A stretch of 64,000 bases of DNA from a virus. The notes beneath the pieces were generated by a model. It made no database searches. It saw nothing but the letters and a program-made list of their open reading frames with translations, and had not been told where the DNA came from. Within the stretch, counting starts at the first letter, position 1, and each line of letters begins with the position of its first letter. This document shows positions 31,728 through 57,933 of the stretch, one piece after another. A program made the translations under genes and the position numbers. The stretch lies in the IMG/VR virus record IMGVR_UViG_3300025425_001694; one strand, given 5' to 3'.

Positions 31728-32633
31728 TTATACTTGTTGGCCTGCAGAGTAGTACCGTGCTTGTGTTAAATCACCAACATCAGTCGCATTTCCATCAGAT
31801 GCAAAAGGAAACTTATCAATTGTTCCGATGCCGGGAGTTCCGCCCGATGCATAACCGGATGCATTGCTTGATTGGCCTGCAGCCCCGGATCTACCTTGTG
31901 TTAAATCACCAACATCAGTCGCATTGCCGTCAGCAGCAAAAGGAAACTTATCAATTGTTCCGACTACCGGGGGAGTTCCGCCTGATGCATAACCAGATAC
32001 ATCGCTTGATTGGCCTGCAGGCCCGGCTGTCGCTACTGTTAAATCACCAACATCAGTCGCATTGCCGTCAGCCGCAAAGGGGAACTTATCAATTATCATG
32101 CTCCAATTGCCGGGGTCCATTCCGCCTGAAGTATACCCAGATACAGTACTTGACTGACCTGCCGCCACATATCTTGCTTGTGTTAGATCACCAACATCTG
32201 TTGCATTTCCGTCAGATGCAAAAGGAAACTTGTCAATAACAGTAGAAGTTGGAAAATGGCCACCAGACGAATAACCCGACACTGTACTCGATTGACCCGC
32301 AACGGTCTGTCTTGCTACTGTCAAATCGCCAACGTCTGTTGCATTACCATCAGCTGCAAAAGGAAACTTGTCAATAACAGTAGAATAGGGAGGTGCAGTC
32401 CCACCAGAAGTATATCCGGATACTACGCTTGATTGCCCTCCACATATTTGTCCTCTTAATACTGTCAAATCGCCAACGTCTGTTGCATTGGCATCAGATG
32501 CAAAAGGAAATTTATCAATTACATTTGTGGACGCGGTTCCGCCTGAAGTATAACCGCTTACCGAGCCTTGTGCATGTGACGGGTTTGATACATGTACACT
32601 TGCTATCTTATCTTGAGTAATTTTTATTGCCAT
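31728..32633 (-). CDS. six-repeat (Kelch-like beta-propeller) protein, paralog A
   Basis: six copies of GY.SGG-x-IDKFPFA.D.NATDVGDLT-x-AGQSS. Confidence 0.75.
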   Translation of the reverse strand: MAIKITQDKIASVHVSNPSHAQGSVSGYTSGGTASTNVIDKFPFASDANATDVGDLTVLRGQICGGQSSVVSGYTSGGTAPPYSTVIDKFPFAADGNATDVGDLTVARQTVAGQSSTVSGYSSGGHFPTSTVIDKFPFASDGNATDVGDLTQARYVAAGQSSTVSGYTSGGMDPGNWSMIIDKFPFAADGNATDVGDLTVATAGPAGQSSDVSGYASGGTPPVVGTIDKFPFAADGNATDVGDLTQGRSGAAGQSSNASGYASGGTPGIGTIDKFPFASDGNATDVGDLTQARYYSAGQQV

Positions 32634-32669
32634 TTTTCTATCCTAATATTTTATACTCGTTTGTTGACA

Positions 32670-33671
32670 TTATACTTGTTGACCTGCTAAACTATAACGA
32701 CCCGCTGTTAAATTTCCTACATCAGTTGCATTACCGTCAGCCGCAAAGGGGAACTTGTCGATAATATTAGATTGGGCAGGGACTTTGCCACCAGAAGAAT
32801 AACCAGACGCGGTGCTCGATTGACCAGCTGCCTGGCGTTTTACCGTCGTTAAATCACCAACATCAGTAGCGTTAGCGTCAGATGCAAAAGGAAACTTGTC
32901 GATAATATTTGTGAACGCGCCGCCATCGCCACCAGAAGTATATCCGGATACTGTGCTCGATTGACCAGCTGCATACCTTGTTACTCTTGTCAAATCACCA
33001 ACATCAGTTGCATTACCGTCAGCCGCAAAGGGGAATTTATCAATTATATTTCCAGACCCCAATGTGCTATACCCAGCTGAAGAATATCCGGATACTGCGC
33101 TTGATTGGCCAGCCGGGGAATATCTACCTTGTGTTAAATCACCAACATCAGTTGCATTACCGTCAGCCGCAAAGGGGAACTTGTCGATAACATTTGTAAG
33201 CGTCATGGCGCCGGTTGGATTGGTTCGCCCGCCTGAAGTATAACCAGACGCGTCGCTTGATTGACCAGCCATATAATAACGAACCTGTGTCAAATCACCA
33301 ACGTCAGTTGCATTTCCGTCAGAAGCAAATGCAAACTTATCAATTGTATTCTGCAATGCCTGTGCCGGCCACGTGTTTCCACCTGAAGTATACCCAGATA
33401 CAGTACTTGACTGACCTGCCACAGCATATCTTGCTTGTGTTAGATCACCAACATCTGTTGCATTTCCGTCAGATGCAAAAGGAAACTTGTCAATAACAGT
33501 AGAAGCTGGAAACATGCCACCAGACGAATAACCACTTACCGAGCCTTGTTCAGGCGTCGTTGGATGATCGGCAAATTCTAAATAGTCATTTACAACAAAC
33601 TTTGTTTTGTCACCCGGGTTAATATTACCGGATGCATCTACAACTACGGTACCTTTTACTTTATATGTCAT
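32670..33671 (-). CDS. six-repeat propeller protein, paralog B
   Basis: six copies of the same repeat. Confidence 0.75.
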   Translation of the reverse strand: MTYKVKGTVVVDASGNINPGDKTKFVVNDYLEFADHPTTPEQGSVSGYSSGGMFPASTVIDKFPFASDGNATDVGDLTQARYAVAGQSSTVSGYTSGGNTWPAQALQNTIDKFAFASDGNATDVGDLTQVRYYMAGQSSDASGYTSGGRTNPTGAMTLTNVIDKFPFAADGNATDVGDLTQGRYSPAGQSSAVSGYSSAGYSTLGSGNIIDKFPFAADGNATDVGDLTRVTRYAAGQSSTVSGYTSGGDGGAFTNIIDKFPFASDANATDVGDLTTVKRQAAGQSSTASGYSSGGKVPAQSNIIDKFPFAADGNATDVGNLTAGRYSLAGQQV

Positions 33672-33676
33672 ATATC

Positions 33677-34357
33677 TTATCCAGCATCTGTTGGGTTTGT
33701 GATAGTTTCGCTAAACGGATCTATCTCTGTGAAATCTATTATATCATCACCAGCATCTTCAAAGTCTATATTATTTGCAATAGGATCTTTTGTTTTTAAT
33801 GCAGTGAGCGAAGTAACAGCAGTTGTTTTATAATTATCAAAAAATGTATCTATATCCGATACACCAGTTTGGAATCTTTCATTGGAATATTCAAACAATT
33901 CGCACTGAAGGTCGAACACTTGTAAAGCACCACTCTGATAGAAGACGCTCTCATGTTCAACGTGAGTAATTTTAAAGAACTTGTTAACCATTGGAAAGTA
34001 TACCAGTTCTCCTTCCTTTGGTCTTAAAATAGTAGGGATTATGTTAGTTACATTTTTCTCAAATGTTCGCATTGCAACAGTAAATGTAACTTGGTCACGA
34101 ATTTGTAAACCAAACCTACTAAGGAAGTCGCCTTCACCTTGAAATCCATCAACACTCTTAACATACATTTCCATTTCATATGAAGTATTAAAGATCGAAA
34201 GATCATCTTCATTTAATATATTGTCTACAGCCTGCAAACTACGAGTAAGATAATACGTGTCTATCCCATAAATCTGAATAGACTCGATCACCAGGTCATC
34301 AATGAGAGTCTGTTCGTTTGAATAATCATAATTATTAAAATATGCGTTAGTAGCCAT
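33677..34357 (-). CDS. gp14: neck protein
   Basis: EQ.L..DL..ESIQIYG.D.YY, GEGDFLS.FG..IRD, RP.EG.L.YFP, CELF.YS.E. Confidence 0.93.
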   Translation of the reverse strand: MATNAYFNNYDYSNEQTLIDDLVIESIQIYGIDTYYLTRSLQAVDNILNEDDLSIFNTSYEMEMYVKSVDGFQGEGDFLSRFGLQIRDQVTFTVAMRTFEKNVTNIIPTILRPKEGELVYFPMVNKFFKITHVEHESVFYQSGALQVFDLQCELFEYSNERFQTGVSDIDTFFDNYKTTAVTSLTALKTKDPIANNIDFEDAGDDIIDFTEIDPFSETITNPTDAG

Positions 34358-34360
34358 GTA

Positions 34361-35104
34361 TTAACCCACAAAATTATAGGTAAGCGGTTGCAGGGAATTA
34401 ATAGCGTTTTCTTCCATCTCTTTTCGATCTGTCTTAGCTTCGCTTAATATTTGCTCACCGTTAAACTGTACACCACCTACAAGTTGCATGTTTGTAAACT
34501 TCGTTAAATTAAATCCCCATTGTTCTCTTACTAGAGCTGAAGTGTAATTTTGAAGAAAGCGATCTTGCCAAACATCAGCATATGTTTCACCACTTATGAT
34601 ATCATATCCTTCAATGATAATATGCGATCCTGCGACCATTATATTTTTCTTACCATCAATATAAAGGCGATTTACATGGCGGTTATATCGTACTAAAGGT
34701 TTTCCTACTAAAATTTCCTGAAGAAATTGCAGATGAGACATTGACATATAATAGTTCTGTATACTATATCCTGTAATATCACTGAGGTTATTTAAAACGA
34801 ATTGGTATTGCACATTAAAAATGCCAGTACCCGTTGACACAGATGAGCTCAAGTCAAATATTCGAGTAACACCGAGCATATTTTCCGGTACTGTGACATA
34901 ACCTTGATCTATTTCAGCTTGGGTGAGCTCGTGCTTAAGATAAACCATTTGACTTCCATCATAATGATAATCTCTCCAAAAAGATATAGCTTCGTCAATA
35001 CGGTCTTCAATTTGTTCTTCGGAAACATTTATTTGAATGACCGGAGCACCTATTTTACGAAGTACGTAATCTTTAAACTCTTCGCGTGTTGTTGGTAATG
35101 CCAT
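34361..35104 (-). CDS. gp13: neck protein
   Basis: LR..GAPVI.INV..EQ.EDRI.EA, HYDG, QWG.NL.KF...QL.GG...NG. Confidence 0.93.
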   Translation of the reverse strand: MALPTTREEFKDYVLRKIGAPVIQINVSEEQIEDRIDEAISFWRDYHYDGSQMVYLKHELTQAEIDQGYVTVPENMLGVTRIFDLSSSVSTGTGIFNVQYQFVLNNLSDITGYSIQNYYMSMSHLQFLQEILVGKPLVRYNRHVNRLYIDGKKNIMVAGSHIIIEGYDIISGETYADVWQDRFLQNYTSALVREQWGFNLTKFTNMQLVGGVQFNGEQILSEAKTDRKEMEENAINSLQPLTYNFVG

Positions 35105-35151
35105 GTGAGTTAACCTATTTTTGTTTATATTTATAAAAAAAGAGCTATTGT

Positions 35152-35320
35152 CATTTTTCTATTGACATTTTTCAAATAATAGATATAATAGAATTATCTA
35201 TTCTGGGAGTTGTGGTACTAGATTACAATAATTTAATTCAATGCAGGTACCATTTTTCCATTGACATTTCTTCAACAATGAGTATAATAGAATTATATAT
35301 TCTAGGAGCCATGGTATTAG
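35152..35320 (+). repeat. two imperfect copies (99-bp period) of a sigma70 promoter plus short hairpin, facing antisense to the late genes
   Basis: TTGACA-N16-TATAAT at 35162/35184 and 35261/35283; shared flanks CATTTTTC..TTGACATTT and TATAATAGAATTAT.TATTCT.GGAG..TGGTA.TAGA. Confidence 0.75.
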
Positions 35321-36081
35321 ACGCGTTCTATATCTTCTTCAATGCAATTACTGCCGTACTGTATTTCAACTATCCTAACTTCATCATTTGTATTATTTAT
35401 CAATTGATGCCATGTATGGACCGGAATGTATATTTCACCATGTTTTTTAAGTACTGATGTCTGTATATTATCTAGATCATCACCATGATTTACGGTTGCT
35501 TCTCCGTAACTTACAATCCAATATTCACTTCTTGTTTCGTGTTTCTGCAAACTAAGCGATCTTCCAGGCGCAACAACAAGTTCTTTTACTTTAGTGGATG
35601 GGCCATCAGAATGAAGTACGCGATAATATCCCCATTTTCTTTCTGTTTTTGGTGTTTTCCACTCAGTAAGTATTTTACTGCTGGAATTCATCTTGTGAAT
35701 TCCACCTACTCCGAAAACAAATGATAATCTCTTATCTTTAATTTTCATTTCTGGAATGTTATCATCTGTTCTATCTCCACCGTTCGCAAAGATAATTTCA
35801 GCGTTTGGATACATATTTAAACAATTATGAATTGCCTGGGATGCACCACCATCGCTATCGTCGAATACCATTACAGAGTCAACGACAGAAAGATTTTTTA
35901 CAATCTCAACTCTTTCGTTAATATCCATAAACGGTTGGCCTTTTTTACGAGTCAGCCATTCGTTGCTATTTACCCCAACAACTAGCACGTCCCCTAACTT
36001 TTTCGCTTCATTAAAATATGCTATATGACCAGAATGAATCGGGTCAAATCCGCCTGTAACTAAAACTACTTTCATTATCAA
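35317..36081 (-). CDS. cytidyltransferase-family nucleotidyltransferase fused to a ManC/PMI-type cupin
   Basis: VTGGFDPIHSGH, FANGGDR, SSS.IL; ERKWGYY, LSLQKH..RSEYW, IVEIQYG....EEDIER. Confidence 0.85.
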   Translation of the reverse strand: MIMKVVLVTGGFDPIHSGHIAYFNEAKKLGDVLVVGVNSNEWLTRKKGQPFMDINERVEIVKNLSVVDSVMVFDDSDGGASQAIHNCLNMYPNAEIIFANGGDRTDDNIPEMKIKDKRLSFVFGVGGIHKMNSSSKILTEWKTPKTERKWGYYRVLHSDGPSTKVKELVVAPGRSLSLQKHETRSEYWIVSYGEATVNHGDDLDNIQTSVLKKHGEIYIPVHTWHQLINNTNDEVRIVEIQYGSNCIEEDIERV

Positions 36082-36791
36082 TCTCCTAAATGCATATTTG
36101 AAACTTCGCCATCAAAGAAAAACATTTGCCACATTCTACAATCATGTATATTGCTACCAAAATATTCAGAAGCAGCATGTATTGATCCACCTTCGAATAT
36201 AACTAATCTGTTAAAAATATTACCAAAAGAATCTACCGTATCGTATGGAGTCTTATCTAAAAATGTATTTCCAGGAAATACTTTATGGCCAGTCCCATCG
36301 TTCCAATTAATTTGGGAATTATGATGGATTTTAGTTTCTCTATGCATATAGGTACTTGTACCAGTTTGTGGTGGGGCATCTGGAGTTAGGTATATCATAG
36401 CGGCCCATTTTTGTTGGTCACAGTGATATACTAATTTTTCACCGGCGTGGTTGTGTTGAAACCTTCCGTTCATACCATATGTTTCCCATTCGCTAATTCT
36501 TTCGCCAATGATACTTTCAAATGTTTCCTTTAGTCCTGGAAAAAGGTGTTGTGTTCTTGTTCTTTTACCGATATACCCGTCATCATCAAAGTATTCTTGT
36601 TGAAGCGCAAATTCTCGCATCGCGTAAGGATCCGCATAAAAATTATCAATTATGAATGCTCTTTTGTTTTCTTGTAGATTGGGGTTAACCGCGTATACAG
36701 AAGAATCGTCATGATGAGTAATTTCTTCATCTTGAACTTCTATAATTTCTTCTTCTGTAATTTCTTCTTCTGTAATAAGCCAATTTTTCAT
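36078..36791 (-). CDS. 2OG-Fe(II) oxygenase-like protein (DUF6445-like)
   Basis: IIDNFYADP...R.FAL, HCD...WAAMIYLTP..P...GT, FNRLVIF....H. Confidence 0.75.
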   Translation of the reverse strand: MKNWLITEEEITEEEIIEVQDEEITHHDDSSVYAVNPNLQENKRAFIIDNFYADPYAMREFALQQEYFDDDGYIGKRTRTQHLFPGLKETFESIIGERISEWETYGMNGRFQHNHAGEKLVYHCDQQKWAAMIYLTPDAPPQTGTSTYMHRETKIHHNSQINWNDGTGHKVFPGNTFLDKTPYDTVDSFGNIFNRLVIFEGGSIHAASEYFGSNIHDCRMWQMFFFDGEVSNMHLGD

Positions 36792-36792
36792 A

Positions 36793-41312: not shown

Positions 41313-43190
41313 TTACTTATTTTTAACTTCTTCCTTTAGTTTATTTATCGCGTCGATCATGATTGCAATTAAAGGAATATATGAAACAGTTCTTTGACCA
41401 TTGCCATTTTTCTTTACAAGCTCAGGCATGATTTTTTCTAATTCTTGCGCCATAACACCATAACTCAATTCTTTTGTATCTTTCCAATTAAACTTATATG
41501 TATCAATTTTATCAAGTATTGAAAAGCTATCATTAATTGGTAAAATATTTTCTTTAACTGTTGCATCTGAAAGTGAATTAAAGCCTGTTGCTGACAAGTC
41601 GCCAGTAGAAGGATTAAAATACAGTTTTGTTGTTGACGACGTAATTGTTTGAACAGATCCAGTTGCTCCAACAAAAACCGGATAAAAATCTTGATTTGTT
41701 GATGTATCATTTAGTGATTGCAATTCATATGCAGAAGCAGCTTCTGCAGCTCCACCTTGAATACCTTGTCCACCAGTAATACCTTGGATACCTTGCGAAC
41801 CAACGCCAGTAATACCTTGGATACCTTGACGACCCTGAATACCTTGAATACCTTGTCCACCAGTAATACCTTGGATACCTTGTCCGCCAGTAATACCTTG
41901 GATACCTTGAATACCTTGAATACCTTGGGCGCCAGCGGCACCAGTAATACCCTGAATACCTTGTCCACCAGTAATACCTTGAATACCTTGAATACCTTGA
42001 ATACCTTGGGCGCCAGCGGCACCAGTAATACCCTGAATACCTTGTCCACCAGTAATACCCTGTATACCCTGTGACCCAGCTCCAGTAATACCCTGAATAC
42101 CCTGTTCGCCAGTAATACCTTGAGCACCAGTAACACCTTGGATACCTTGAGCACCAGTAACACCTTGGATACCCTGAATACCTTGTTCACCAGTAATACC
42201 CTGAATACCTTGAACACCCTGAGCACCTACAGAACCTAATGTACCGCTAATACCTTGAATACCTTGTTCACCAGTAATACCTTGGATACCTTGAACACCC
42301 TGTTCACCAGCTCCTGTTAAACCTTGAATACCTTGTTCACCAGTTATACCTTGTATACCTTGAGCACCAGTAACACCTTGGATACCTTGGTTTCCAGTAC
42401 CGTCAGTACCTTGTACACCCTGTTCACCAGTAATACCCTGAATACCTTGGTCACCTTGACTACCTTGGATACCCTGTTCTCCAGTAATACCTTGGATACC
42501 TTGTTCACCAGTAGTACCTTGAGAACCTTGAATACCTTGATTACCGGTACCGTCAGTACCCTGAATACCCTGTTCACCAGTTATACCTTGGATACCTTGA
42601 ACACCCTGAATACCTTGGTCGCCAGTTATACCTTGAACACCCTGGATACCTTGTACACCCTGTTCACCAGAAATACCTTGGATACCCTGTTGCGCAATAC
42701 CTTGAATACCTTGGATACCTTGCGGTCCAACGATGTCTCCGGTGTTAACCCAATCACTACCACCCCAAACCCATAGGTTTGATGTTGCTTCGTCAATTAC
42801 ACCGTCAGCCAAAGAAGGCGATGAGAAAGCTGCAGACAGAGTTGTTTGCGGGTTATTTGGCGGATTGACATTAACATCAGGAACAGATCCTAATACTTTA
42901 AAAGGATCACCCTTTGTACCTTGGAGACCTTGAAATCCCTGAATACCCTGAATACCTTGTTCACCAGTGATACCTTGAATACCCTGTGGACCAATTATAG
43001 TACTTCCGTCTATCCAATTTCTAGACCCATCTTCATCAGATGCAAGTATGTAACCGTTAGCAGATGGTACGCCAAGATCTGGTTCTGTTTCAGATAGAGT
43101 TAAAAATTCGTATCTATCTTCAGAAACTTCAGATGACGGAGTTTTTGATATTCTACCCGATACGGTAGAATCGGATATTAATTTTACCAT
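41313..43190 (-). CDS. collagen-like (GXQ/GIT) fibre with C-terminal peptidase S74 intramolecular chaperone
   Basis: long GIQ/GIT/GEQ tract; SDATVKENI...F.WK.....[13 protein letters not shown]...V.Y..LI. Confidence 0.85.
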
Positions 43191-46948: not shown

Positions 46949-46997
46949 AGTATAAACTCCATTTTTAATAATTCAATGTCTTGATTAATTGTATTTA

Positions 46998-48005: not shown

Positions 48006-49001
48006 TTATACAGAGCTTTGATTTCCATGGACCCAGCGTCTTGATGCTGTTGTTAGATCCCCAACATCTGTTGCGTTAGCGTCAGAAGCAAAAGGAAACT
48101 TATCAATTGTGTTTGTGGCCGCAGGCCCTGCAAACCCGCCAGACCTATAACCGGAAGCCGTACTCGACTGACCAGCGGCCGTAGTCACAACAGATGTCAA
48201 ATTACCAACATCTGTTGCATTTGCATCAGAAGCAAAAGGAAACTTATCAATAACATTAGAAGTTGCTGGATAATAGGTGCCAGTACTATGCCCGCCTGAA
48301 GTATAGCCAGATATTAAACTTGATTGGCCGGCTACGCTGGATCTAGCTTGAGAAAGATTAGCGACATCAGTTGCATTTCCATCAGTTGCAAATGAAAATT
48401 TGTATATAGTATTTTGTGTCGAACCGCCTGTGTTACCACCTGATACATAACCATTTTCCAAGCTTGATTGGTCAGTGCACCACGCCCGGATCGCTGGAAG
48501 ATCACCAACGTCCGTTGCATTAGCATCCGTAGCGAATGCAAACTTGTCTATCGTATTAACAATCGGTGCTGATTGCCCTCCGGCTGTATAGCCTGATACG
48601 TCGCTTTCATGGCCTGAGCCATTTCCTCTTGCTTGCGTTAAATCACCAACATCGGTTGCATTTCCGTCAGCAGCAAAGGGATACTTGTCAATAACGTTAG
48701 AGGTGGCAGCAGGCCCGCCGCCCACACTATAACCACTTACCAAACTTGATGCTCCAGTTTGGCTGCCGAACGCAGAAGTACGTGTCAAATTACCAACATC
48801 AGTCGCGTTGGCGTCAGATGCAAAAGGAAACTTATCGATTACATTAGAATTTGGCTGCCCACCATGTGTGTATCCGGATACACTACCGTATGCAGTTGGA
48901 GTTGGCGGCACGTTAAACTCATTCGCGGTAGCTTTACCGTCAAAGTATATGCCGTCATCGTATTCAGTAAACGAAAAAAGTTCTGTTATAACGGTTGCCA
49001 T
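48006..49001 (-). CDS. six-repeat propeller protein, paralog C
   Basis: six repeat units. Confidence 0.75.
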   Translation of the reverse strand: MATVITELFSFTEYDDGIYFDGKATANEFNVPPTPTAYGSVSGYTHGGQPNSNVIDKFPFASDANATDVGNLTRTSAFGSQTGASSLVSGYSVGGGPAATSNVIDKYPFAADGNATDVGDLTQARGNGSGHESDVSGYTAGGQSAPIVNTIDKFAFATDANATDVGDLPAIRAWCTDQSSLENGYVSGGNTGGSTQNTIYKFSFATDGNATDVANLSQARSSVAGQSSLISGYTSGGHSTGTYYPATSNVIDKFPFASDANATDVGNLTSVVTTAAGQSSTASGYRSGGFAGPAATNTIDKFPFASDANATDVGDLTTASRRWVHGNQSSV

Positions 49002-49031
49002 TCATTTAATCCTTGGAGTTGTTTAGTCTAT

Positions 49032-50042
49032 TTATACCTGTTGACCGGCCGCGGCGTAAACAGCATTAGTTAAATTACCAACATCTGTTGCATTAGCATC
49101 AGCAGCAAAAGGAAACTTTTCAATCGTGTTAATAGCTGCCCCAGGTGGCTGATATCCCCCAGAAGTATAACCAGAAGCTGTGCTTGACGTGCCTGTTACT
49201 CTGCGCGAAAATAACGTTGTTAAATCACCAACATCAGTCGCATTTCCATCAGATGCAAAAGGAAATTTATCAATTGTGTTAACACTTACAACCCCAGGAC
49301 CAATATTACCCCCAGAAGTATAACCTGAAGTTGCACTATTCTGTCCTGCAGCTTGCTTACGACTTTGCGTTAGATCCCCAACATCACTCACGTTTGCATC
49401 TGTAGAAAATGGAAACTTTTCAATAATATCAGTGTTTACTGAAGGGTCAGAAGGTAAACCGCCTGAAATATAGCCTGACACAACACTTGAGTGACCAGCT
49501 GGTGACGACCTACCTTGCGTTAAATCGCCAACATCTGTTGCGTTTGTGTCAGCTGCAAAAGGAAACTTGTCGATTACTAAGGAAGACGGTGGAAATACAA
49601 AACCACCTGATGTATACCCAGATACAGTACTTGACTGACCCGACGCACTGTTCCTTACCTGTGTTAGATCACCAACATCTGTTGCATTTCCGTCAGCTGC
49701 AAAAGGAAACTTGTCGATTTTATTAACACGAGTAGGGGACCCCGGTGTAGTACCACCAGAAGTATAACCGTTTTCTGTACTTGATTGCCCAGCAACAAAT
49801 GCTCTGTTATCAGGTCCGGACAAAAACCCAGATTGAGTTGCGTCAGCATCAGATGCAAAAGAAAACTTGTTAATTCTGTTAGTATGTGGCGGATTTATAC
49901 CACCAGACGAATAACCACTTACAGTACCCTGCGCATGGCTATCCGCAAATCCTAAATAGTCATTAACTACAATTTTAGTTTTATTTGCTGTGATAGACGC
50001 GTTATCACTTATAACCTCAACATCTTTTACAAACCATGCCAT
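49032..50042 (-). CDS. six-repeat propeller protein, paralog D
   Basis: six repeat units. Confidence 0.75.
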   Translation of the reverse strand: MAWFVKDVEVISDNASITANKTKIVVNDYLGFADSHAQGTVSGYSSGGINPPHTNRINKFSFASDADATQSGFLSGPDNRAFVAGQSSTENGYTSGGTTPGSPTRVNKIDKFPFAADGNATDVGDLTQVRNSASGQSSTVSGYTSGGFVFPPSSLVIDKFPFAADTNATDVGDLTQGRSSPAGHSSVVSGYISGGLPSDPSVNTDIIEKFPFSTDANVSDVGDLTQSRKQAAGQNSATSGYTSGGNIGPGVVSVNTIDKFPFASDGNATDVGDLTTLFSRRVTGTSSTASGYTSGGYQPPGAAINTIEKFPFAADANATDVGNLTNAVYAAAGQQV

Positions 50043-51034
50043 TATGCTTGTTGACCTGCTTGGCGAAGTCTTCCTACTGTTAAATCACCAACATCAGTTG
50101 CATTAGCATCAGAAGCAAAGGGAAACTTTTGAATTGTATTAGAAACCGGGCCACCAGACACATAGCCAGACGCTGTGCTAGATTGTCCTTCGTAATATGA
50201 ACCTACTTGCAACAGGTCGCCGACATCAGTAGCATTTCCATCAGATGCAAAAGGAAATTTATCGATTACATTGGTTGTGCCCGGGGATTGGCCGCCGGAA
50301 GCATAACCAGATTCTGTGCTACTTTGGCCTGCGCCGTCAAACCTTCCTACTGTTAAATCGCCAACATCAGTTGCATTACCATCAGTAGCAAAAGAAAACT
50401 TGTTAATAACATTTGAAGCAGGAGTGTTCCCGCCTGACACATAACCAGAAACTAGGCTTGATTGCCCCGTAACCAACGTGACGGTATTTGTTAAATCACC
50501 AACATCTGTTGTATTACCATCAGTAGCAAAAGGAAACTTGTGAATTTCAGCAACGGTCGGTTGGCCCGCGATTTGAGGGGCGGTGGCGCCGGAAGTATAA
50601 CCATTCGTGCCGCTTGATTGACCAGCTCCTTGCCATCCTGTGGCCGCTATACCAACATCAGTTGCATTACCATCAGATGCAAAAGAAAATTTCATGATAG
50701 TGCCTATGTTATAGGCAGGGGCATTTGTTCTTCCCCCAACAACATACCCGGCCGTAGAGCTAGATACTCCAACTCCGTTGCTATAGGGTAATGTCAAATC
50801 ACCAACGTCAGTTGCATTTCCGTCAGATGCAAAAGGAAACTTGTCAATTACAGTGGAGTACGCCGGTTCTTCACCGCCTGAAGTATAGCCACTTACAGTA
50901 CCTCCAAATTGCCAACGCTCTTCATATTCTGTAGCCAATATGTTGCCGTCAAACTCAAAACCTTCATCAGTAAAGGTTAACGTATAGTCACCAAAATTTA
51001 TGGTACCGTCTTGGTTAAATTTAATTTGGGACAT
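50042..51034 (-). CDS. six-repeat propeller protein, paralog E
   Basis: six repeat units; TAATG coupling to paralog D. Confidence 0.75.
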   Translation of the reverse strand: MSQIKFNQDGTINFGDYTLTFTDEGFEFDGNILATEYEERWQFGGTVSGYTSGGEEPAYSTVIDKFPFASDGNATDVGDLTLPYSNGVGVSSSTAGYVVGGRTNAPAYNIGTIMKFSFASDGNATDVGIAATGWQGAGQSSGTNGYTSGATAPQIAGQPTVAEIHKFPFATDGNTTDVGDLTNTVTLVTGQSSLVSGYVSGGNTPASNVINKFSFATDGNATDVGDLTVGRFDGAGQSSTESGYASGGQSPGTTNVIDKFPFASDGNATDVGDLLQVGSYYEGQSSTASGYVSGGPVSNTIQKFPFASDANATDVGDLTVGRLRQAGQQA

Positions 51035-51050: not shown

Positions 51051-51179
51051 TTAAACGTCTTCAACGAGCTCTTTTAAAATTTCAAACGCATCATTATCTT
51101 CCATTTGAAATTTTCTTAATACTTCAATTAATTCATTTTCATCAAGTTCTTCAATCTTTTTTGCTAACATAATTTCCAT
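51051..51179 (-). CDS. small acidic hypothetical protein (42 aa, not in ORF track)
   Basis: MEIMLAKKIEELDENELIEVLRKFQMEDNDAFEILKELVEDV*, fills the gap in the operon. Confidence 0.5.
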   Translation of the reverse strand: MEIMLAKKIEELDENELIEVLRKFQMEDNDAFEILKELVEDV

Positions 51180-51185: not shown

Positions 51186-51521
51186 TTAACTTCCGTTTTT
51201 AGTTACAAAATCGTCGTACCAAGCTTCAGTCATTGTTGTTACTTCGGCATCAGTCATATCTGTTGGATCTGCACCAGGATCAGATTCATCCATATTCTGA
51301 AACGGAGTTACTCCATGCATTGCGAGGTTGCGAGTAACCAATTCTGCTTTTGTAAAGGACGTAACCGAGTCGGGAACGTAATAATCGCGAGTATCATCTA
51401 CCCAGCCGATATATGTATTGTCTGCGCTATTAAACCAGTGGCCGCGATCGCCGACCCAACCTGGTATTTCAGCGCGATTACCACCATTAATTCTATGAAG
51501 CATATATTCTATTACAGCCAT
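51186..51521 (-). CDS. hypothetical protein
   Basis: 111 aa; GGAGG SD; late promoter at 51567. Confidence 0.7.
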   Translation of the reverse strand: MAVIEYMLHRINGGNRAEIPGWVGDRGHWFNSADNTYIGWVDDTRDYYVPDSVTSFTKAELVTRNLAMHGVTPFQNMDESDPGADPTDMTDAEVTTMTEAWYDDFVTKNGS

Positions 51522-51575: not shown

Positions 51576-52346
51576 TTACAATGATCTTATATTCTTCCTT
51601 GGGTAAGGAAAAATATCTATTGGTGTTAAAGTAATACAACATGTGCTATTTTGATTGCGTTCTTTATTTTCTACCATGTGGTCTACTTTAAATTCTGTAT
51701 TTTCAATTTTATATTTTAGTTTTTCTATATCGTATTCTTTTTGTAGGCCTTTACTGTTTTCTAATGCATCATAAAATATTTTTGGCATTTTTCCATTATT
51801 TAATACATCAATTATACGATTAATTGCCATGTAAGATGGATAATGAGTACTTGCGCTATCGATATATATTTTAGCATGGTCATTCATTTTTGGAATATAA
51901 TCAACTAATAACTTTGTTACATCAAAAACACCATGCGCAAAATCAGAAAAAAGTATATCAATATTATTTAAATCTAAAACATCAATTTTTTGATTTAAAA
52001 ACTTAATACTATCCTTAAGTTGAAAGTCTTCAATTAAACCTAAAATAAAATCGTCATATTCTTCTTTATAGTAATTACCCATCGCATCTTTTGCAGTTTT
52101 AAGACGGTGCCATTCGCTACCGTCATCAATAGTATGTATAGTACCATAATCGTTTTCTTGAAGAGCTAACCCAGCCCAAAGCATTGCTGAACCAAGACCA
52201 GTTCCAAGTTCAACAACAGTTTTTGGTTTCATCATTTTAATCATAGAATAAAGGTACACTGAAAAGTCTTCTGTTCCGTATATAGAACCAACTCCGTCAG
52301 TGTACCTTTTTAACTCTACGAATTTTTCATAGAAATCAGTCTTCAT
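51576..52346 (-). CDS. class I SAM-dependent O-methyltransferase-like protein
   Basis: KP.TVVELGTGLG, G.I.TID, IDILFSD..H; start taken at MKTDF. Confidence 0.75.
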   Translation of the reverse strand: MKTDFYEKFVELKRYTDGVGSIYGTEDFSVYLYSMIKMMKPKTVVELGTGLGSAMLWAGLALQENDYGTIHTIDDGSEWHRLKTAKDAMGNYYKEEYDDFILGLIEDFQLKDSIKFLNQKIDVLDLNNIDILFSDFAHGVFDVTKLLVDYIPKMNDHAKIYIDSASTHYPSYMAINRIIDVLNNGKMPKIFYDALENSKGLQKEYDIEKLKYKIENTEFKVDHMVENKERNQNSTCCITLTPIDIFPYPRKNIRSL

Positions 52347-53283
52347 CTGTCTCTTCTGTAAGGTCAGCAAGAGATGCAACTTTGTTTGAAAAGGAAATTG
52401 CTTCGTTTGGTTCTGGGTCGTATCCTAGAAGTTCCATTCGAGTAATGTCAACCTTATGCTTATTAATCAATTCATTTGCTAAACCATCAACAAACTCAAA
52501 TAATCCTTCGCTACCCCAAGAGTTTTGTTCAACTTCTTTCTTTACATATTCTTGAATGATACGTTGCATTTTACTCGGGTTTACACCAATCTGTTCCATA
52601 TACTCTTGTTCACCCTTTGTAATTTTACCAGATTGGCGAACGTCACGAATACATTGAACAATACTTCTTTTAAGATGTGTAATTGATTCTTCTTTTTCAA
52701 TATCATGCTCAGAGAAACCACTTACCTTTTCTTTAAGATCTTCGTAGATTTCTTGAAGGGCAAGAACATCTTTCATCGCACCTTCGATATATGTCATACC
52801 GTCAACAGCACCTTCTTGAAGCTGAGCAAGTTTAATCTTAAGATCAACTTCTCTCCAATAATCAAGATCTACAGCATTTTGCAGTTCTTCTTGAAGTTTA
52901 CGAATTTTTGCTTCATTTTTAATATGACGCCACTTTGCCTCGGTAAGAGCAGAATTCTTTTTTGATAACTCAGCAGAAATTTGGCGCATATTCTTATGTG
53001 GACTGTGGTAACTAAAGTTAATATGTTTCCACATCCATTGCGAGTGACTGTGGTTCCAAATATTACCTAATTCGCCAACATTCTTTAGAGCAGCGTCAAC
53101 GAGCTGAGAATTTTCGTTGAGCGTCTTGTTCCCAAAACTAGGGAGATTACCTGTAGTACCGTGGCCAAAAACCATAGCCATCGGAACCTTTAACTTTTCG
53201 GCATTTTCAGTCGTTACGATATTGCTTTTACGTATTTCTTCAAATACAGTAAGTTCACGTACGTTTTTCTTTTCTTCTTCCAT
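52336..53283 (-). CDS. coiled-coil hypothetical protein
   Basis: SP..NMRQI.AE..K...AL.EA, G.I..G..EY..Q.G.NP; helical; start taken at MEEEKK. Confidence 0.65.
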   Translation of the reverse strand: MEEEKKNVRELTVFEEIRKSNIVTTENAEKLKVPMAMVFGHGTTGNLPSFGNKTLNENSQLVDAALKNVGELGNIWNHSHSQWMWKHINFSYHSPHKNMRQISAELSKKNSALTEAKWRHIKNEAKIRKLQEELQNAVDLDYWREVDLKIKLAQLQEGAVDGMTYIEGAMKDVLALQEIYEDLKEKVSGFSEHDIEKEESITHLKRSIVQCIRDVRQSGKITKGEQEYMEQIGVNPSKMQRIIQEYVKKEVEQNSWGSEGLFEFVDGLANELINKHKVDITRMELLGYDPEPNEAISFSNKVASLADLTEETDED

Positions 53284-53284
53284 G

Positions 53285-54619
53285 TTATTTAAATCTCCTT
53301 GGTCCATGTATCCAAATTACGAGTGCATAGCGATCTCCGGTTTCAATTGGAGTAACTACATGTGGCATATAGCTCGGGAATAGGGAAATAGATCCTCTTT
53401 CACGAACTGCTTGTATTTTATTTCCGTGGTCATCAACAACTAAATCACAACCTGTATAGCTGTCTGGGTTGGATAATTGAGCCGTGAATGATATTTTTCT
53501 TGTTGCTACTGTACCGTTTCCAGCATCAACGTGCCAATCATAGTGTCCTGGGACTTCTGAATCGGATGGATAATGAATTAACTGTAGTGAATGTTCAATA
53601 TGTGATATGTCATAGTCAAAGTGTATTGCGTTTACAGCAGTTATAGACTTTGCTACTTTATCAAAAATCCATTTATTCTCTTTATCATTTTCAACTGAGT
53701 ATATTTCAGCTGATCTTATTTTACGAGAAACTGTGCCTTTACTATCGCCACCTACGCTCGCAGATGCTGCGTACGAATCGTTTGCGATCTGAATAATACG
53801 ATCACATTCTTCATCTGTAAACTTTAACTGCGGTAATGTTTTATTATTGATTGGAAAATACCCAGGCAAAGTATTATCCCGGCCAGGTAAAATTATCCCG
53901 CCAAACACCGGATCCGGAATAAGCATATCTTTTTTCTTTTCAAGAATTTCTTGAATAGGTACCTGATTATGTTGATGAACGATCGTAGTCGTCTGTTCTT
54001 GCTGGGCGGGTTGTTGAACTTCATTTGTGTTTGTCATAGTAGCTGCTGTTTTATCAACTCCCAATTCTGTTCTTCCATCCATAGCTTGATCTGCGTGTGG
54101 ACCATCTGCATCAACAAAATGCAAGAATACTTGACAATGCCAATTACCTTTAAACGGCTTTCTCCAGTGTACCATTTCAGTACCTTTGTAGGCTGCCATT
54201 TCTCCTGGTTCCATTGTTACTGCTTTTTCTACAGTACCATCGTCGTTTGAAAAATAGATTGGCCAGTTTGCCTTTGCATCATAACCTAATGTTAATGTTG
54301 TACTAATCTCACACGCTGGGCGATCCTTATGTTTTTTGAGTACGTCTCCCGGGCGATAAATGCGAGCATAGGAGTATGTAGGAAGTAGTCTTTTTCCGAC
54401 TGCCTTTCCAAGAGGTTCTGCGACGTTCTGAAGCAGTGCGTCAAATTTAAGATCGCCATACACTGCATCTGATAGTGGGCACTGGTCGTCCTTCACTAAC
54501 TTACCAGCGTCATGCAGATCAAACATGTGCTTTACTAAACCATCAGATTGTTCTTTTGATAAAACATCCTGTAGTACTACGTATCCATTTTCTTCAAAAT
54601 AATTTACTGTGTCGGTCAT
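53285..54619 (-). CDS. tandem two-domain 2OG-Fe(II) oxygenase
   Basis: domain 1: YSYARIY..G..L..HKDR..CEIS, HWR; domain 2: YDWHVD, RKIS...QLS....Y.G.DL, FPSY.PH.VTP...G.RY.LV.W..G. Confidence 0.85.
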   Translation of the reverse strand: MTDTVNYFEENGYVVLQDVLSKEQSDGLVKHMFDLHDAGKLVKDDQCPLSDAVYGDLKFDALLQNVAEPLGKAVGKRLLPTYSYARIYRPGDVLKKHKDRPACEISTTLTLGYDAKANWPIYFSNDDGTVEKAVTMEPGEMAAYKGTEMVHWRKPFKGNWHCQVFLHFVDADGPHADQAMDGRTELGVDKTAATMTNTNEVQQPAQQEQTTTIVHQHNQVPIQEILEKKKDMLIPDPVFGGIILPGRDNTLPGYFPINNKTLPQLKFTDEECDRIIQIANDSYAASASVGGDSKGTVSRKIRSAEIYSVENDKENKWIFDKVAKSITAVNAIHFDYDISHIEHSLQLIHYPSDSEVPGHYDWHVDAGNGTVATRKISFTAQLSNPDSYTGCDLVVDDHGNKIQAVRERGSISLFPSYMPHVVTPIETGDRYALVIWIHGPRRFK

Positions 54620-54625
54620 AATATA

Positions 54626-55198
54626 TTATTCTCCATTCGTATATTGAAATTTGCAAGTCACAACGTATCTTTTATCCTGAGCCGAAGCAAATGGTGGTGA
54701 ACCACAGTGCGGAATACCTCCATCAAAAACAACCAATCTACCAGGAACGTAAGCGGCAGCATATTCGATGTTATCAAGAGTTTCATTGAAAAAGAAGGTA
54801 TGTCCTCCCCAATGAATATTCCAATCCGGATGCGGATAATAGAGAGCAGTCTTTGGCTTTCCTAAGTGATTATCGTCGATGTGTATCGTATCAAAATCAC
54901 TTGTGGTAGCAAGGTTTACATATTGACGGTGTACTATGTAATTATCGCCCAAGTTTGGATCTACTCTATTGAGTTTATTTATAATACCAAAATTAATTGA
55001 TTGCTCACGCGACTCAAAAACATATTTTAATTTGTGCTTTTCACCATATATATGCGAACGCAACCCGTCACTAAAATTTGTAGCTGAGTAAGGAAATTGG
55101 CGAACAGCAATAAACATTCGCGACATTTCTTCAAAAGTAAAAAGATCATCGTATACGTCAACTTTTCGGCCGTTAATATTAATTTCTTTATGTTTCAT
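54626..55198 (-). CDS. 2OG-Fe(II) oxygenase (prolyl-hydroxylase-like)
   Basis: IHID, LYY...W...WGG.T.F, PGRLVVFDG.IPH, RY. Confidence 0.82.
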   Translation of the reverse strand: MKHKEININGRKVDVYDDLFTFEEMSRMFIAVRQFPYSATNFSDGLRSHIYGEKHKLKYVFESREQSINFGIINKLNRVDPNLGDNYIVHRQYVNLATTSDFDTIHIDDNHLGKPKTALYYPHPDWNIHWGGHTFFFNETLDNIEYAAAYVPGRLVVFDGGIPHCGSPPFASAQDKRYVVTCKFQYTNGE

Positions 55199-55755
55199 GA
55201 TATACCTATATTAAAGCTAATGCTTACTCTATTTTCTTCTGATGTGTTTGGTTCTACGTAATGTTCTAACCAACCCGGGAAAACAATACATGCAAGATGT
55301 TGAGGATCTATTGGATAATTTTTAGAGCGAATAGTGTGAGTATCGCTACGGATATTTGGATTTACAAATATTAATCTGCCACTGCTTTTTGGCACTTGTA
55401 AATAAAAAACTCCAGATAGACAACCTTCATGAGTATGTTGATAATTAAAAGAATGTTTACCATTTACATTCGCCCACATACTTTGTACTACAGGATTTTC
55501 TATCCCGTAGTCTTTTAGAATTGTTTGTCCAATTGATTTAATAAGAGTATTATTTACAAACTCTTTAAAAAGCGGTTCTTCGTGAAGATTATCCCGAGAC
55601 TGCCATCCGCCTCCTGCATTGCTTTTATTTGCAGAAGGTTCAGCAGAATGCAATTCAAGTATTTTTTCAAGATAATCTTCAGCCTGATATTTTTCACTAC
55701 TTAAAACATAACCCCAAATAGGAGTTGGAAATATATTTACTTCGTGGTCGTTCAT
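55195..55755 (-). CDS. 2OG-Fe(II) oxygenase (TIGR02466-like)
   Basis: FPTP, GGWQS, WAN.N.....N..H.H....SGV.Y, FP.WL.H.V.PN.....R.SISFN. Confidence 0.85.
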   Translation of the reverse strand: MNDHEVNIFPTPIWGYVLSSEKYQAEDYLEKILELHSAEPSANKSNAGGGWQSRDNLHEEPLFKEFVNNTLIKSIGQTILKDYGIENPVVQSMWANVNGKHSFNYQHTHEGCLSGVFYLQVPKSSGRLIFVNPNIRSDTHTIRSKNYPIDPQHLACIVFPGWLEHYVEPNTSEENRVSISFNIGIS

Positions 55756-55848
55756 AATTTACTCCATAATATAACATTGTATTGTTATTTATACAAACCC
55801 GGCCACTAATTTAAATGCTACAGTTTAATATTCTTGTGTTTTACATTT

Positions 55849-56820
55849 TTAGTATTGATGGCCGCTAAGGCCGTAGCGAGTACTTGTCAAATCGCCAACA
55901 TCTGTCGCGTTACCATTTGAAGAAAAAGGAAACTTATCAATCTCGTTTCGATTGGGAGGAACTTGGCCACCGGAAGTATAACCATGGGTTAAACCTGATG
56001 AACCGGCACTTGCCTTGCGGATTACGGTTAAATTGCCAACATCTGTTGCGTTGCCATCAGAAGCAAAAGGAAACTTATCGATTACATTTGATGTCGGAGA
56101 TGCTCCACCTGAAGTATAGCCGTCGTCTGCAGACTGTTGGCCCGCTTGCCAATATCTACCTGCTGTTAAATCACCAACATCGGTTGCATTACCATCAGAC
56201 GCAAAAGGAAACTTATCGATTACATTAGTACTAGTTTGCCCACCTGATGTATAACCTGACACAGCGCTCGACTGACCAACCAGCCTTGGTCTTCCTGCTG
56301 TTAAATCACCAACGTCTGTTGCATCACCATCAGCAGAAAAAGGAAATTTATCGATTACATTCGTCACTGAACCGCCCCCGGAAGTATAGCCAAAGCTAGT
56401 GCCGCTTTGCGCAGCTCCGAGAAGGGCTGTACTGAGCTTTGTTGGAGTTAAGCTTCCTACAGCTGCCCCATCACCGTCGCTAGCAAAGTCAAATTTTTGG
56501 ATTGAGTTTGTAGTTCCTCCACCTACAGTATAACCAGAAGTTGTGCTTGAAAGACCTGCGCCGTAACCAACCCCAGTCGCTAAGTTCGCACTGGTCGTTG
56601 CATTGGCATCAGAAGCAAAAGGAAACTTATCAATAATTTTTATCTGTGCTTGACCGCCTGATGTATAGCCACTCGTAGAACCTTGGGGCACACCTTGCGG
56701 GCCAAGTGGTACAGCATAAGATCCGTACTTAAACTTCCCGTCGATCTCAATACCATCGGCATGAACTGAGATACTATAGGCACCAAAGTTTATCGAGTCT
56801 TTATTAATTGAAATCGGCAT
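55849..56820 (-). CDS. six-repeat propeller protein, paralog F
   Basis: six repeat units. Confidence 0.75.
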   Translation of the reverse strand: MPISINKDSINFGAYSISVHADGIEIDGKFKYGSYAVPLGPQGVPQGSTSGYTSGGQAQIKIIDKFPFASDANATTSANLATGVGYGAGLSSTTSGYTVGGGTTNSIQKFDFASDGDGAAVGSLTPTKLSTALLGAAQSGTSFGYTSGGGSVTNVIDKFPFSADGDATDVGDLTAGRPRLVGQSSAVSGYTSGGQTSTNVIDKFPFASDGNATDVGDLTAGRYWQAGQQSADDGYTSGGASPTSNVIDKFPFASDGNATDVGNLTVIRKASAGSSGLTHGYTSGGQVPPNRNEIDKFPFSSNGNATDVGDLTSTRYGLSGHQY

Positions 56821-56850
56821 TTACAAAATCCTTAGAGTTCTTTAGTCTAT

Positions 56851-57933
56851 TTATACTTGTTGGCCTGCAGATTGGTACCTGCCTTGTGTTAAATCACCAA
56901 CACCTGATGCATTAGCATCTCCCGCAAAAGGAAACTTATCAATTGCTGCGACTAACGGGGGCTGTACGTTGCCGCCTGATGTATAACCGGATGTATCGCT
57001 TGATTGGCCTGCAGCCCCGAACCGTGCTTGTGTTAAATCACCAACATCAGTCGCATTGCCGTCAGCAGCAAAAGGAAACTTATCAATTGTTCCGACTACC
57101 GGGGGAGTTCCGCCTGATGCATAACCAGATACATCGCTTGATTGGCCTGCAGGCCCGTACCGCGCTACTGTTAAATCACCAACATCAGTCGCATTGCCGT
57201 CAGCCGCAAAGGGAAACTTGTCGATAACATTAGTTGTGCTTAAGCCACCCGAAGTATACCCGGATACTGTGCTTGTCTGGCCGGACACTTGATATTTACC
57301 TACTGTTAAATTGCCAACGTCAGTCGCATTTGCGTCAGCAGCAAAAGGAAACTTATCAATTGTATTTGTGCCCCCACTCCCGCCTGATGCATAACCCGAC
57401 ACTGTACTCGATTGACCCGCAACGAACCGTCTTGCTACTGTCAAATCGCCAACGTCTGTTGCATTACCATCAGCTGCAAAAGGAAACTTGTCTATTATGT
57501 TGGATAAAGTTGACGGCCCCTCGAGGCCGCTTGCAGAGTAACCACTCGTAGTACTCGATTGCCCTCCACCTATATTTCCTCTTAATACTGTCAAATCGCC
57601 AACGTCTGTTGCATTGGCATCAGATGCAAAAGGAAATTTATCAATTACATTTGTGGACGGGGTTCCGCCTGAAGTATAACCGCTTACCAAGCCTTGCGCT
57701 TGTGTATATACAGCTGAGATGAACCTAACGACCTGCGCTTCTGCATTAAACTGATTAAAAGAAAAACCATCTTCGTCAATAGCCTTATCTCCAACTACAG
57801 AATAACCATCAGAAGAAACTGTATCGTTATTTGCAATAAGAATATAAGCATCGTTGGCTATCTTGGAATTAGCCGATGCAGTATAATTTCGTGCATCACT
57901 TAAAAATTCTGTTCCACCTGACTTAAGTGCCAT
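56851..57933 (-). CDS. six-repeat propeller protein, paralog G
   Basis: six repeat units. Confidence 0.75.
   Translation of the reverse strand: MALKSGGTEFLSDARNYTASANSKIANDAYILIANNDTVSSDGYSVVGDKAIDEDGFSFNQFNAEAQVVRFISAVYTQAQGLVSGYTSGGTPSTNVIDKFPFASDANATDVGDLTVLRGNIGGGQSSTTSGYSASGLEGPSTLSNIIDKFPFAADGNATDVGDLTVARRFVAGQSSTVSGYASGGSGGTNTIDKFPFAADANATDVGNLTVGKYQVSGQTSTVSGYTSGGLSTTNVIDKFPFAADGNATDVGDLTVARYGPAGQSSDVSGYASGGTPPVVGTIDKFPFAADGNATDVGDLTQARFGAAGQSSDTSGYTSGGNVQPPLVAAIDKFPFAGDANASGVGDLTQGRYQSAGQQV

Follow-up and report, generated by a model that had tools for sequence, protein, structure and literature searches.

Seven predicted six-bladed Kelch-type propeller proteins with a constant scaffold and variable loops, encoded in the late structural region of a T4-like myovirus

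The 64,000-nucleotide stretch of the IMG/VR virus record IMGVR_UViG_3300025425_001694 that has been analyzed here (the window) contains seven minus-strand open reading frames (ORFs), A to G, whose products of 301–360 residues are predicted by structure modeling to be six-bladed Kelch-type β-propellers. In each protein, a near-constant scaffold is repeated six times and is interrupted by two variable segments, which in the model are the B–C and D–A loops, predicted to lie on the face that is equivalent to the ligand face of Keap1. These propeller genes, together about 7 kb of coding sequence, are located among the late structural genes of a T4-like myovirus. We infer virion display and binding from this context, and the properties of the seven proteins fit virion-attached host-binding modules that belong to a large, virus-only family.

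Repeat structure and predicted fold

When the 64-kb window is scanned in six frames for the anchor I-x-K-F-x-F-A-x-D, 42 repeat units are found, six in each of the seven ORFs (Table 1) and none outside them, which is exactly the count that had been claimed in an earlier note on this DNA. The units are 42–52 residues long. The per-column entropy over the 42 units is at most about 0.9 bit at GY, SGG, I.KFPFA, D.NATDVGDLT, and the G of AGQSS, and it rises to 2.5–3.7 bits in two segments, one behind GG and the other behind DLT. The one behind GG also varies in length (2–11 residues in the trimmed alignment and 3–14 residues when DSSP is applied to the structural model), and the proposal of two variable segments, the first of them also length variable, is thereby borne out. 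The GG pair is present in 40–41 of the 42 units, the Tyr in all 42, and an Arg of the D–A loop in 28, and there is no conserved Trp. Of the scaffold residues, 14% are Asp (~1% in the loops) and 0% are Trp. Arg (15%) and Tyr (7.5%) are abundant in the D–A loops, as are Pro, Ser, and Thr in the B–C loops. A D/E-x-N-x-S/T motif occurs in 38 of the 42 units, and N-x-S/T occurs in 80% of the units of the family. The same conserved/variable profile is seen in 1462 units of 260 metagenomic homologs, 180 of which have exactly six anchors.

The earlier note had also described the scaffold as near-invariant at the DNA level, which is overstated. Over the 19 core codons, the units have a mean nucleotide identity of 0.79 and a third-position identity of 0.585, with nearly equal identities within and between genes, and long exact tracts are found only between particular blades. 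This third-position identity shows that the scaffold is conserved at the protein level and not at the DNA level, and the divergence of the third positions, being similar within and between genes, suggests that the repeats are old and have been kept by protein-level selection. Concerted evolution of the whole scaffold was considered and rejected, because the synonymous sites have diverged and only local tracts are homogenized.

The AlphaFold2 model of paralog B, obtained with a 68-sequence alignment, has a mean predicted local distance difference test score (pLDDT) of 92.7 and a predicted template modeling (TM) score of 0.87. In the model of paralog G, the propeller has pLDDT values of 85–93, and the N-terminal 80 residues have values of 40–57, at which low confidence no fold can be assigned to this domain from the model. 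The PDB structures matched by Foldseek are KLHL12, Keap1, KLHL3, KLHL17, and the designed SAKe6 proteins (E ~1e-17 to 1e-18), with a TM score of 0.88 to KLHL12 and Keap1 and of 0.86–0.94 per target across the top Kelch matches. In an independent VIA-align search against representative structures, KLHL17 (Z 39.9), Keap1 (Z 39.6), and KLHL12 (Z 39.5) superimpose with a root mean square deviation of 1.7–1.9 Å over 278–280 residues, and lower scores are obtained for YjhT (Z 26.9), the RSL lectin (Z 20.8), and the YWTD and NHL propellers (Z 17–20). For propeller lectins of the RSL/AAL/SapL1 type, in which near-identical blades each contribute a sugar site, Z is 18.5–20.8, much lower than for the Kelch domains. 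The blades of the phage proteins are highly alike. The model and both structural comparisons thus support the predicted six-bladed Kelch-type propeller.

At the sequence level, a profile search of the PDB finds KLHL12 at E 0.19, which is weak but in register (GY..GG on IYVIGG). None of the Pfam models Kelch_1 to Kelch_6 is above threshold (the best is Kelch_6, in one paralog, at E 0.12 with 12.9 versus 25.3 bits), the Pfam matches of the seven proteins amounting to sub-threshold noise (THDPS_M, DNase_NucA_NucB, and this Kelch_6 match), and no Pfam model covers the propeller family. All seven proteins match PHROG 19111, for which no function is annotated, with E values of 5e-7 to 3e-22. The Kelch type by structure, the sub-threshold Pfam Kelch scores, and the PHROG 19111 matches, taken together, mark the proteins as a separate sequence family with a Kelch-type fold.

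In the model, DSSP assigns 24 propeller strands, four in each of the six blades, and the strands of the repeat unit have the order B-C-D-A’. The C-terminal AGQQV strand, which is followed by the stop codon, is the last propeller strand and closes blade 1 as in Keap1. The B–C connection (3–14 residues) and the D–A connection (2–8 residues) are variable, and the C–D connection, always seven residues long (A-S/A-D-G/A-N-A-T), and the A–B connection (2–3 residues) are constant. Because an up-and-down meander of four strands puts the B–C and D–A links on one face, both variable segments are predicted to share a face, which supports the expectation of the earlier note. Keap1 binds its ligand Nrf2 via its D–A and B–C loops and has the same closure by the C-terminal strand (PMC12314335), and the variable face of the phage proteins is, according to the model, the equivalent of this ligand face.

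The phage proteins share with the Kelch domains of the BTB-Kelch substrate adaptors KLHL17, Keap1, and KLHL12 the six four-stranded blades, the first of which is closed by the C-terminal strand, the repeats of ~46 residues, the Tyr-x-x-Gly-Gly strand, and the Arg in the same register of the D–A loop. The Kelch superfamily is characterized by five to seven tandem repeats of ~44–56 residues, by four-stranded antiparallel blades, and by closure through a terminal strand, all of which agree with the repeat count and the models of the phage proteins. Its sequence signature is a hydrophobic strand before Gly-Gly with spaced Tyr and Trp, of which the phage units have the Gly-Gly and the Tyr but no conserved Trp. 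Unlike the BTB-Kelch proteins, the phage family has no BTB or BACK domain and no Kelch Trp, is restricted to viruses, and remains below the Pfam Kelch thresholds, and when compared with cellular Kelch proteins its blades are far more alike and its genes occur in multigene arrays.

Family distribution, N-terminal segments, and loop evolution

A metagenomic search with a single sequence gives at least 4431 family matches, and a profile search gives 10580 representatives of 50%-identity clusters at E ≤1e-3 and 2640 at E ≤1e-30. Among 185,579 prokaryote species genomes, five family matches are found, all on short contigs of metagenome-assembled genomes. The family is therefore virtually absent from cellular genomes and, as far as these searches indicate, appears to be virtually confined to viruses. 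In a phage collection searched with tblastn, S-SKS1 is the sole relative (28% identity over 87% of the protein), and no cultured pelagiphage or cyanomyophage of the collection carries the family. The S-SKS1 protein, SWZG_00001, belongs to the same sequence family (PHROG 19111) and is the second-best structural match in BFVD, but it is a distant member that occurs in an unrelated Synechococcus siphovirus, beside a 2-oxoglutarate (2OG) oxygenase gene and near a tail-fiber gene. In the literature on Kelch or propeller proteins of T4-like phages, cyanophages, and myoviruses, no description of the family, its arrays, or the dynamics of its loops was found.

A pattern scan of IMG/VR gives 218 confirmed stretches, kept as 68 loci. 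The fetched loci have 1–9 propeller genes each, mostly in tandem runs, and copy number thus varies among related phages. Across divergent phages, the arrays are found inside or beside the gp13-gp14-gp15 block, either upstream of gp13, in the gp13/gp14 or the gp14/gp15 interval, or past gp15. In the related record IMGVR_UViG_3300007609_000003, three loci hold 1+4+3 propeller genes versus 2+3+2 in the window, and the flanking core proteins of the two phages are 75–97% identical when the best propeller matches are 55–70% identical.

The N-terminal segments (tags) of 25–85 residues are paralog specific and form four classes, B/D and C/E/F among them, that recur at the same loci in related phages. 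As each paralog has its own N-terminal segment, which is conserved in relatives, the seven proteins look like addressed components. The term library, as used in the earlier note, therefore needs to be qualified, as the seven proteins are not an interchangeable pool. When hidden Markov models of the four classes are compared with all ORFs of the window, only the propeller genes are matched and no shared docking motif is found, and there is no signal peptide or recognizable virion-attachment domain in the seven proteins. In most family members, the propeller forms the C-terminal part, and the N-terminal domains before it are of many different kinds (median 88 residues). Fusions with Laminin_G_3 and Gly_rich_2 are above the Pfam cut-off, a fusion with DUF4183 is just below it, and fusions with TIG and PF18454 are known from precomputed matches.

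A cassette that is absent from the window follows collagen fiber 1 in the relative L040 (569–4112). Its three genes share an N-terminal domain of ~150 residues (FP..P..G...Y.W.G..W) that matches tail-fiber PHROGs, the heads being, in this order, glycine rich, none, and a six-blade propeller (in a 444-residue protein), and the next gene encodes a Phage_tail_APC chaperone. Among the metagenomic homologs there are also giant proteins, P0128 (1455 residues), P0145 (2791 residues), and P0247 (1921 residues), with 5–10 stretches that match the family profile and, hence, several propellers per polypeptide; no Pfam domains are recognized in P0128 or P0247.

The loops change faster than the remainder of the proteins. 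In seven ortholog pairs between related phages, the N-terminus is 67.5%, the scaffold 76%, and the loops 29% identical, and in 12 variants of paralog E (≥92% identity) the polymorphic positions are 19.3% in the loops, 5.6% in the scaffold, and 4.5% in the N-terminus (Fisher p 8e-4). When the codons of the window are compared with those of four strain contigs, the pooled ratio of nonsynonymous (dN) to synonymous (dS) change is 0.07–0.08 for the flanking genes (dS 0–0.017), 0.20–0.37 for the scaffold, and 0.93–1.23 for the loops, the last of these being obtained from small counts, and the dS of the propeller genes is ~4 times that of the flanks.

Relative to the strain contig L080, the window has 48 differences in 3032 nt, of which 32 are packed into 167 nt, and 2070 nt of flanking genes have one difference. 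This clustering points to tract replacement by recombination. In blade 1 of paralog E (50748–50925), the window allele is 83% identical over 181 nt to the allele that is common to the four strain contigs, and such a divergent allele in otherwise near-identical strains marks this stretch as a replaced tract; among the sequences fetched, no match better than 81–83% was found for its donor. Paralogs A and G, which are 24 kb apart, have three exactly identical tracts of 131, 83, and 64 nt in common, which include variable loops, and A and B have an exact tract of 81 nt in common out of blade register (blade 3 of A and blade 1 of B). The exact tracts of 81–131 nt show that blade-sized exchange between paralogs is real, and paralog A, as judged from these tracts, is a mosaic with tracts from G and B. 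A diversity-generating retroelement was also considered as the origin of the loops and was rejected, because the loops vary in length and the paralog repeats are identical and not A-mutated; no reverse transcriptase is found among the ORFs of the window that were scanned.

Genomic setting and neighboring genes

The window corresponds to the part of a T4-like myovirus genome that holds the late structural genes, with the gp13–gp23 set (gp23, gp22, gp21, gp20, gp19, gp18, gp17, gp16, gp15, gp14, and gp13). The major capsid protein is closest to those of the Sinorhizobium phiM12-type phages (67%), Melnitz (63%), and the cyanomyophages (61%), and a megablast search of 21 kb against 50,697 phage records finds no relative. 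The positions of the propeller genes and of the structural genes and promoters around them are listed in Table 1, in which the neck genes gp14 and gp13 are assigned to PHROGs 460/679 and 211.

Table 1. Propeller genes, structural genes, and late promoters in the window
Feature	Position	Strand	Description
Paralog A	31728..32633	(-)	301 aa; 25-aa N-terminal tag and predicted six-blade propeller; between gp14 and gp15
Paralog B	32670..33671	(-)	333 aa; ~45-aa N-terminal tag and predicted six-blade propeller; start 6 nt past gp14 stop
Paralog C	48006..49001	(-)	331 aa; N-terminal tag class C/E/F
Paralog D	49032..50042	(-)	336 aa; N-terminal tag class B/D; start overlaps E stop (ATAATG)
Paralog E	50042..51034	(-)	330 aa; N-terminal tag class C/E/F
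Paralog F	55849..56820	(-)	323 aa; N-terminal tag class C/E/F; most degenerate of the seven; three blades without D-x-N-x-S/T
Paralog G	56851..57933	(-)	360 aa; 84-aa N-terminal extension; start 4 nt past stop of collagen-like fiber 2
gp13	34361-35104	(-)	PHROG and Pfam Phage_T4_gp13; flanks A/B locus
gp14	33677-34357	(-)	PHROG and Pfam T4_neck-protein; flanks A/B locus
gp15, tail sheath stabilizer	30874..31695	(-)	PHROG 227, E 7e-73; Pfam T4-gp15_tss; downstream of A
Collagen-like tail fiber 1	41313..43190	(-)	S74 chaperone domain
Collagen-like tail fiber 2	57937..60237	(-)	C-terminal S74 chaperone domain; immediately upstream of G
Third collagen-like fiber gene	6894-11768	(+)	1624-aa giant; opposite strand
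Fiber-like protein	43661-45283		Further to the three collagen-like fibers
1039-aa protein	60643-63762		One short local fiber match
Late promoter TATAAATA	49029..49036	(-)	D/C junction; formed from the last Val codon and stop of D (GTA TAA ATA)
Late promoter TATAAATA	56848..56855	(-)	G/F junction; same Val-codon/stop construction
Late promoter	35128..35135	(-)	Upstream of gp13; inferred operon gp13-gp14-B-A-gp15

The T4 late-promoter motif TATAAATA occurs at 22 sites, when 7.5 are expected and none of 100 shuffles reaches 22. It is found 27 nt upstream of the start codons of C and F, and the other five propeller genes appear to be in late operons with the neck genes or with a collagen-like fiber gene, fiber 2 and paralog G being probably cotranscribed. 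This is in agreement with the claim of the earlier note that the propeller genes are expressed from late promoters next to the fiber genes. The sequences at 49001–49036 and 56820–56855 are near-identical 31-nt spacers with a stop codon, the promoter motif, and an AAGGA ribosome site, and the pairs D+C and G+F thus seem to be duplicates of a single two-gene unit, in which a gene with a B/D- or G-class tag is followed by a gene with a C/E/F-class tag.

Two of the three collagen-like fibers have a C-terminal Peptidase_S74 intramolecular chaperone domain. The Gly-X-Y repeats at the termini of the two minus-strand fibers are mostly GIQ/GEQ/GTQ, with one proline only, and the third fiber gene is in a GC-rich stretch (0.46–0.48 versus about 0.37). 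A weak assembly-protein match at 45539–45880 is the sole fiber-chaperone-like signal in the window. Between the gene at 51186–51521 and paralog E, there is an acidic ORF of 42 codons on the minus strand (51051–51179), which is also called in the strains L078, L079, and L080.

Tailoring genes are interleaved with the fiber and propeller genes at 35317–40207, 45923–47831, 51576–52379, and 53285–55755. They encode a cytidylyltransferase and a mannose-6-phosphate-isomerase-like cupin, a DUF6445 protein, a GT25+GT2 fusion, a double methyltransferase (FkbM), a GDP-mannose 4,6-dehydratase, a sulfotransferase, a 444-residue double 2OG oxygenase, and two further 2OG oxygenases. Collagen galactosyltransferases belong to GT25, and modification of the collagen-like fibers is therefore a candidate role. 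Of the 68 IMG/VR loci, 36 have a homolog of the double 2OG oxygenase together with the propeller arrays, 34 have one of a 323-residue helical protein (52336–53307), and 27 have one of a 111-residue protein (51186–51521), in phages whose neck proteins are only 36–47% identical, and 2OG oxygenase, sulfotransferase, and methyltransferase genes also accompany the arrays in many loci. This co-occurrence may reflect either a functional link or lineage synteny. The 323-residue protein has no Pfam or PHROG family, and its ESM Atlas scores (≤0.79) are uninformative.

In pelagimyophages and cyanomyophages, a host recognition cluster has been described as a large nonsyntenic island between the baseplate and neck genes that holds fibers, collagen repeats, lectin-like domains, and glycosyltransferases, and modification of the fibers or of the host envelope has been proposed for such clusters (PMC7029224). 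The window region matches this description, and its propeller genes are located partly within and partly next to the corresponding island. Propellers or Kelch proteins were not encountered in that description, with no search aimed at these words (PMC7029224).

Possible roles of the propeller proteins

Each propeller protein is, as judged from sequence and models, a modular late protein of the T4-like myovirus, composed of a short N-terminal segment and a C-terminal propeller head. The N-terminal segment would be an address that docks the protein at a particular site of the virion, which would be the neck or collar for A and B and the fiber or baseplate region for C to G. In the models, a rigid, acidic, and extremely conserved core and lower face (IDKFPFA-S/A-D-G/A-NATDVGDLT per blade) carries one hypervariable upper face, formed by the B–C and D–A loops of the six blades. 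This upper face would bind ligands of the host surface or of the environment, with glycans or envelope proteins as the probable candidates. The phage would thereby carry several differently addressed binding heads beside its collagen-like fibers. At the sequence level, diversity is seen to arise by duplication and loss of genes in the arrays, by blade-sized tract replacement between paralogs and between phages, and by loop substitutions in which nonsynonymous changes are about as frequent as synonymous ones. We consider it probable, although far from secure, that the N-terminal segments attach each protein to a defined site of the virion and that the variable face binds ligands of the host or the environment. 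A conserved N-terminus joined to what appears from the comparisons to be a fast-evolving head, together with a location among late structural and fiber genes, with a chaperone gene nearby in L040, is also what is found for receptor-binding and tail-fiber proteins.

Several points weigh against this explanation. The loop dN/dS of ~1, from small counts, is no proof of positive selection and could be due to relaxed constraint plus imported tracts, and the placement of the loops on one face is based on strand topology and not on measured positions. No proteomic, structural, or binding evidence was found for any family member, and the only relative in a cultured phage, that of S-SKS1, is annotated as hypothetical. 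The N-terminal segments are short, are modeled with low confidence, and match no other protein of the window, and their docking role is deduced from their conservation only. Ligand binding by the loops, by itself, also leaves the extreme six-fold conservation of the lower face unexplained, and the functional site could be on that face instead.

It is conceivable, but unlikely, that this conserved face is indeed the functional site, with an identical acidic pocket (D-x-N-x-T-D-x-G-D) in each blade that binds a metal ion or a sugar. The proteins would then be six-valent lectins or Ca-stabilized decoration proteins whose upper loops are merely tolerant. A core of 19 residues is kept in all 42 units and in the 1462 units of the homologs, Asp is enriched in the scaffold, and the propeller lectins RSL and SapL1 are also structural neighbors, but the Kelch domains outscore the lectins (Z 40 versus 21), and the loops differ wholesale between phages with conserved N-termini and scaffolds, changing by tract replacement and not by mere drift. 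The C–D loop has oxygen-bearing side chains at its positions 1, 3, 5, and 9, an arrangement that recalls Ca loops of the integrin or DxDxDG type and may favor such a site, although position 6 is an Asp and not the Gly of the classical Ca motif. Somewhat more doubtful is a function inside the cell, in which late proteins would capture host proteins, possibly defense or envelope-biogenesis factors, via the variable face. The absence of a BTB, BACK, or other effector domain in Pfam searches, the position of the genes within or beside the neck (gp13–gp15) and fiber genes across divergent phages, the late promoters and the operons with neck genes or a fiber gene, and the fusion of the family to fiber-type and lectin-type N-domains, beside a tail-fiber chaperone, all argue against it. 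In its favor, the solved structures closest in fold are those of substrate adaptors, substrate capture is known for Kelch proteins of eukaryotes and poxviruses, no signal peptide or recognizable virion-attachment domain is present in the seven proteins, and a fast-evolving binding face would also suit an arms race with defense proteins.

The tailoring genes raise the further possibility, which we regard as very improbable, that the propellers are substrates of a phage modification system, in which the neighboring transferases and 2OG oxygenases would act on them (glycosylation at D/E-x-N-x-S/T, or hydroxylation or sulfation at another conserved residue), and that residues modified in this way are displayed on the virion. 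Most units have the sequon, the GT25+GT2, sulfotransferase, GDP-mannose dehydratase, methyltransferase, and 2OG oxygenase genes are located among the propeller genes, and a 2OG oxygenase adjoins not only the arrays, as the double enzyme in 36 of the 68 loci, but also the distant S-SKS1 homolog. This co-location may, however, reflect lineage synteny, a purely structural role of the motif is possible, and the glycosyltransferases of the window are of the GT2/GT25 type only, with no oligosaccharyltransferase or GT41/NGT-type enzyme found. The enzymes would equally suit the collagen-like fibers or the host envelope, as has been proposed for the pelagimyophage clusters (PMC7029224). These alternatives are compatible with a virion location.

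The gp38-type adhesins of T-even phages have conserved glycine-rich motifs between hypervariable segments, with the variable loops on the distal surface of a constant scaffold, and, like the phage propellers, they evolve as mosaics driven by recombination. They differ in having an unrelated fold and in being the product of a single gene, located at the tip of the long fiber, when compared with seven addressed paralogs. Propellers as receptor-binding domains of siphophages and Kelch-type propellers in jumbo-phage virions are also already known. Five-bladed propeller platform domains are found in receptor-binding proteins of siphophages, such as those of a Staphylococcus aureus phage and gp18 of the Brochothrix phage NF5 (PMC12917162). 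In these baseplate proteins, the β-propeller is likewise a receptor-binding module, a role that is proposed for the window proteins, but they have five blades, are part of a trimeric stem-platform-tower protein, have no sequence relation to the phage family, and do not form arrays. The Kelch-like protein CBB_552 has been found in a jumbo-phage virion by mass spectrometry (PMC5259590). The structural neighbors in BFVD include CBB_550, CBB_552, and CBB_554, virion structural proteins of PhiPA3, Noxifer, and Phabio, and a BcepSaruman Kelch-motif protein, which differ from the propellers of the window in being only 12–20% identical (query-normalized TM 0.52–0.77, with 0.77 for BcepSaruman) and in having no IDKFPF...NATDVGDLT scaffold; neither paralog arrays nor hypervariable-loop evolution have been described for them.

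If the propeller proteins are virion-displayed binders, they would make up a major, so far unrecognized type of host-recognition module among the uncultured T4-like phages of aquatic habitats, and the arrays, the N-terminal addressing, and the blade exchange would explain how these phages track host-surface diversity. A more tentative extension, which we consider possible but doubtful, is that a general and previously undescribed host-recognition system of aquatic T4-like phages is seen here, in which blade cassettes are swapped among paralogs and co-infecting phages on an invariant, possibly metal-stabilized scaffold, in heads that are addressed by their tags; such a system would be a recombinational repertoire of binding faces. 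The natural, highly regular, and loop-tolerant scaffold is attractive as a binder framework, the designed symmetric SAKe Kelch proteins being among its closest structural matches, and the family can be used as a marker for annotating host-recognition regions in viromes.

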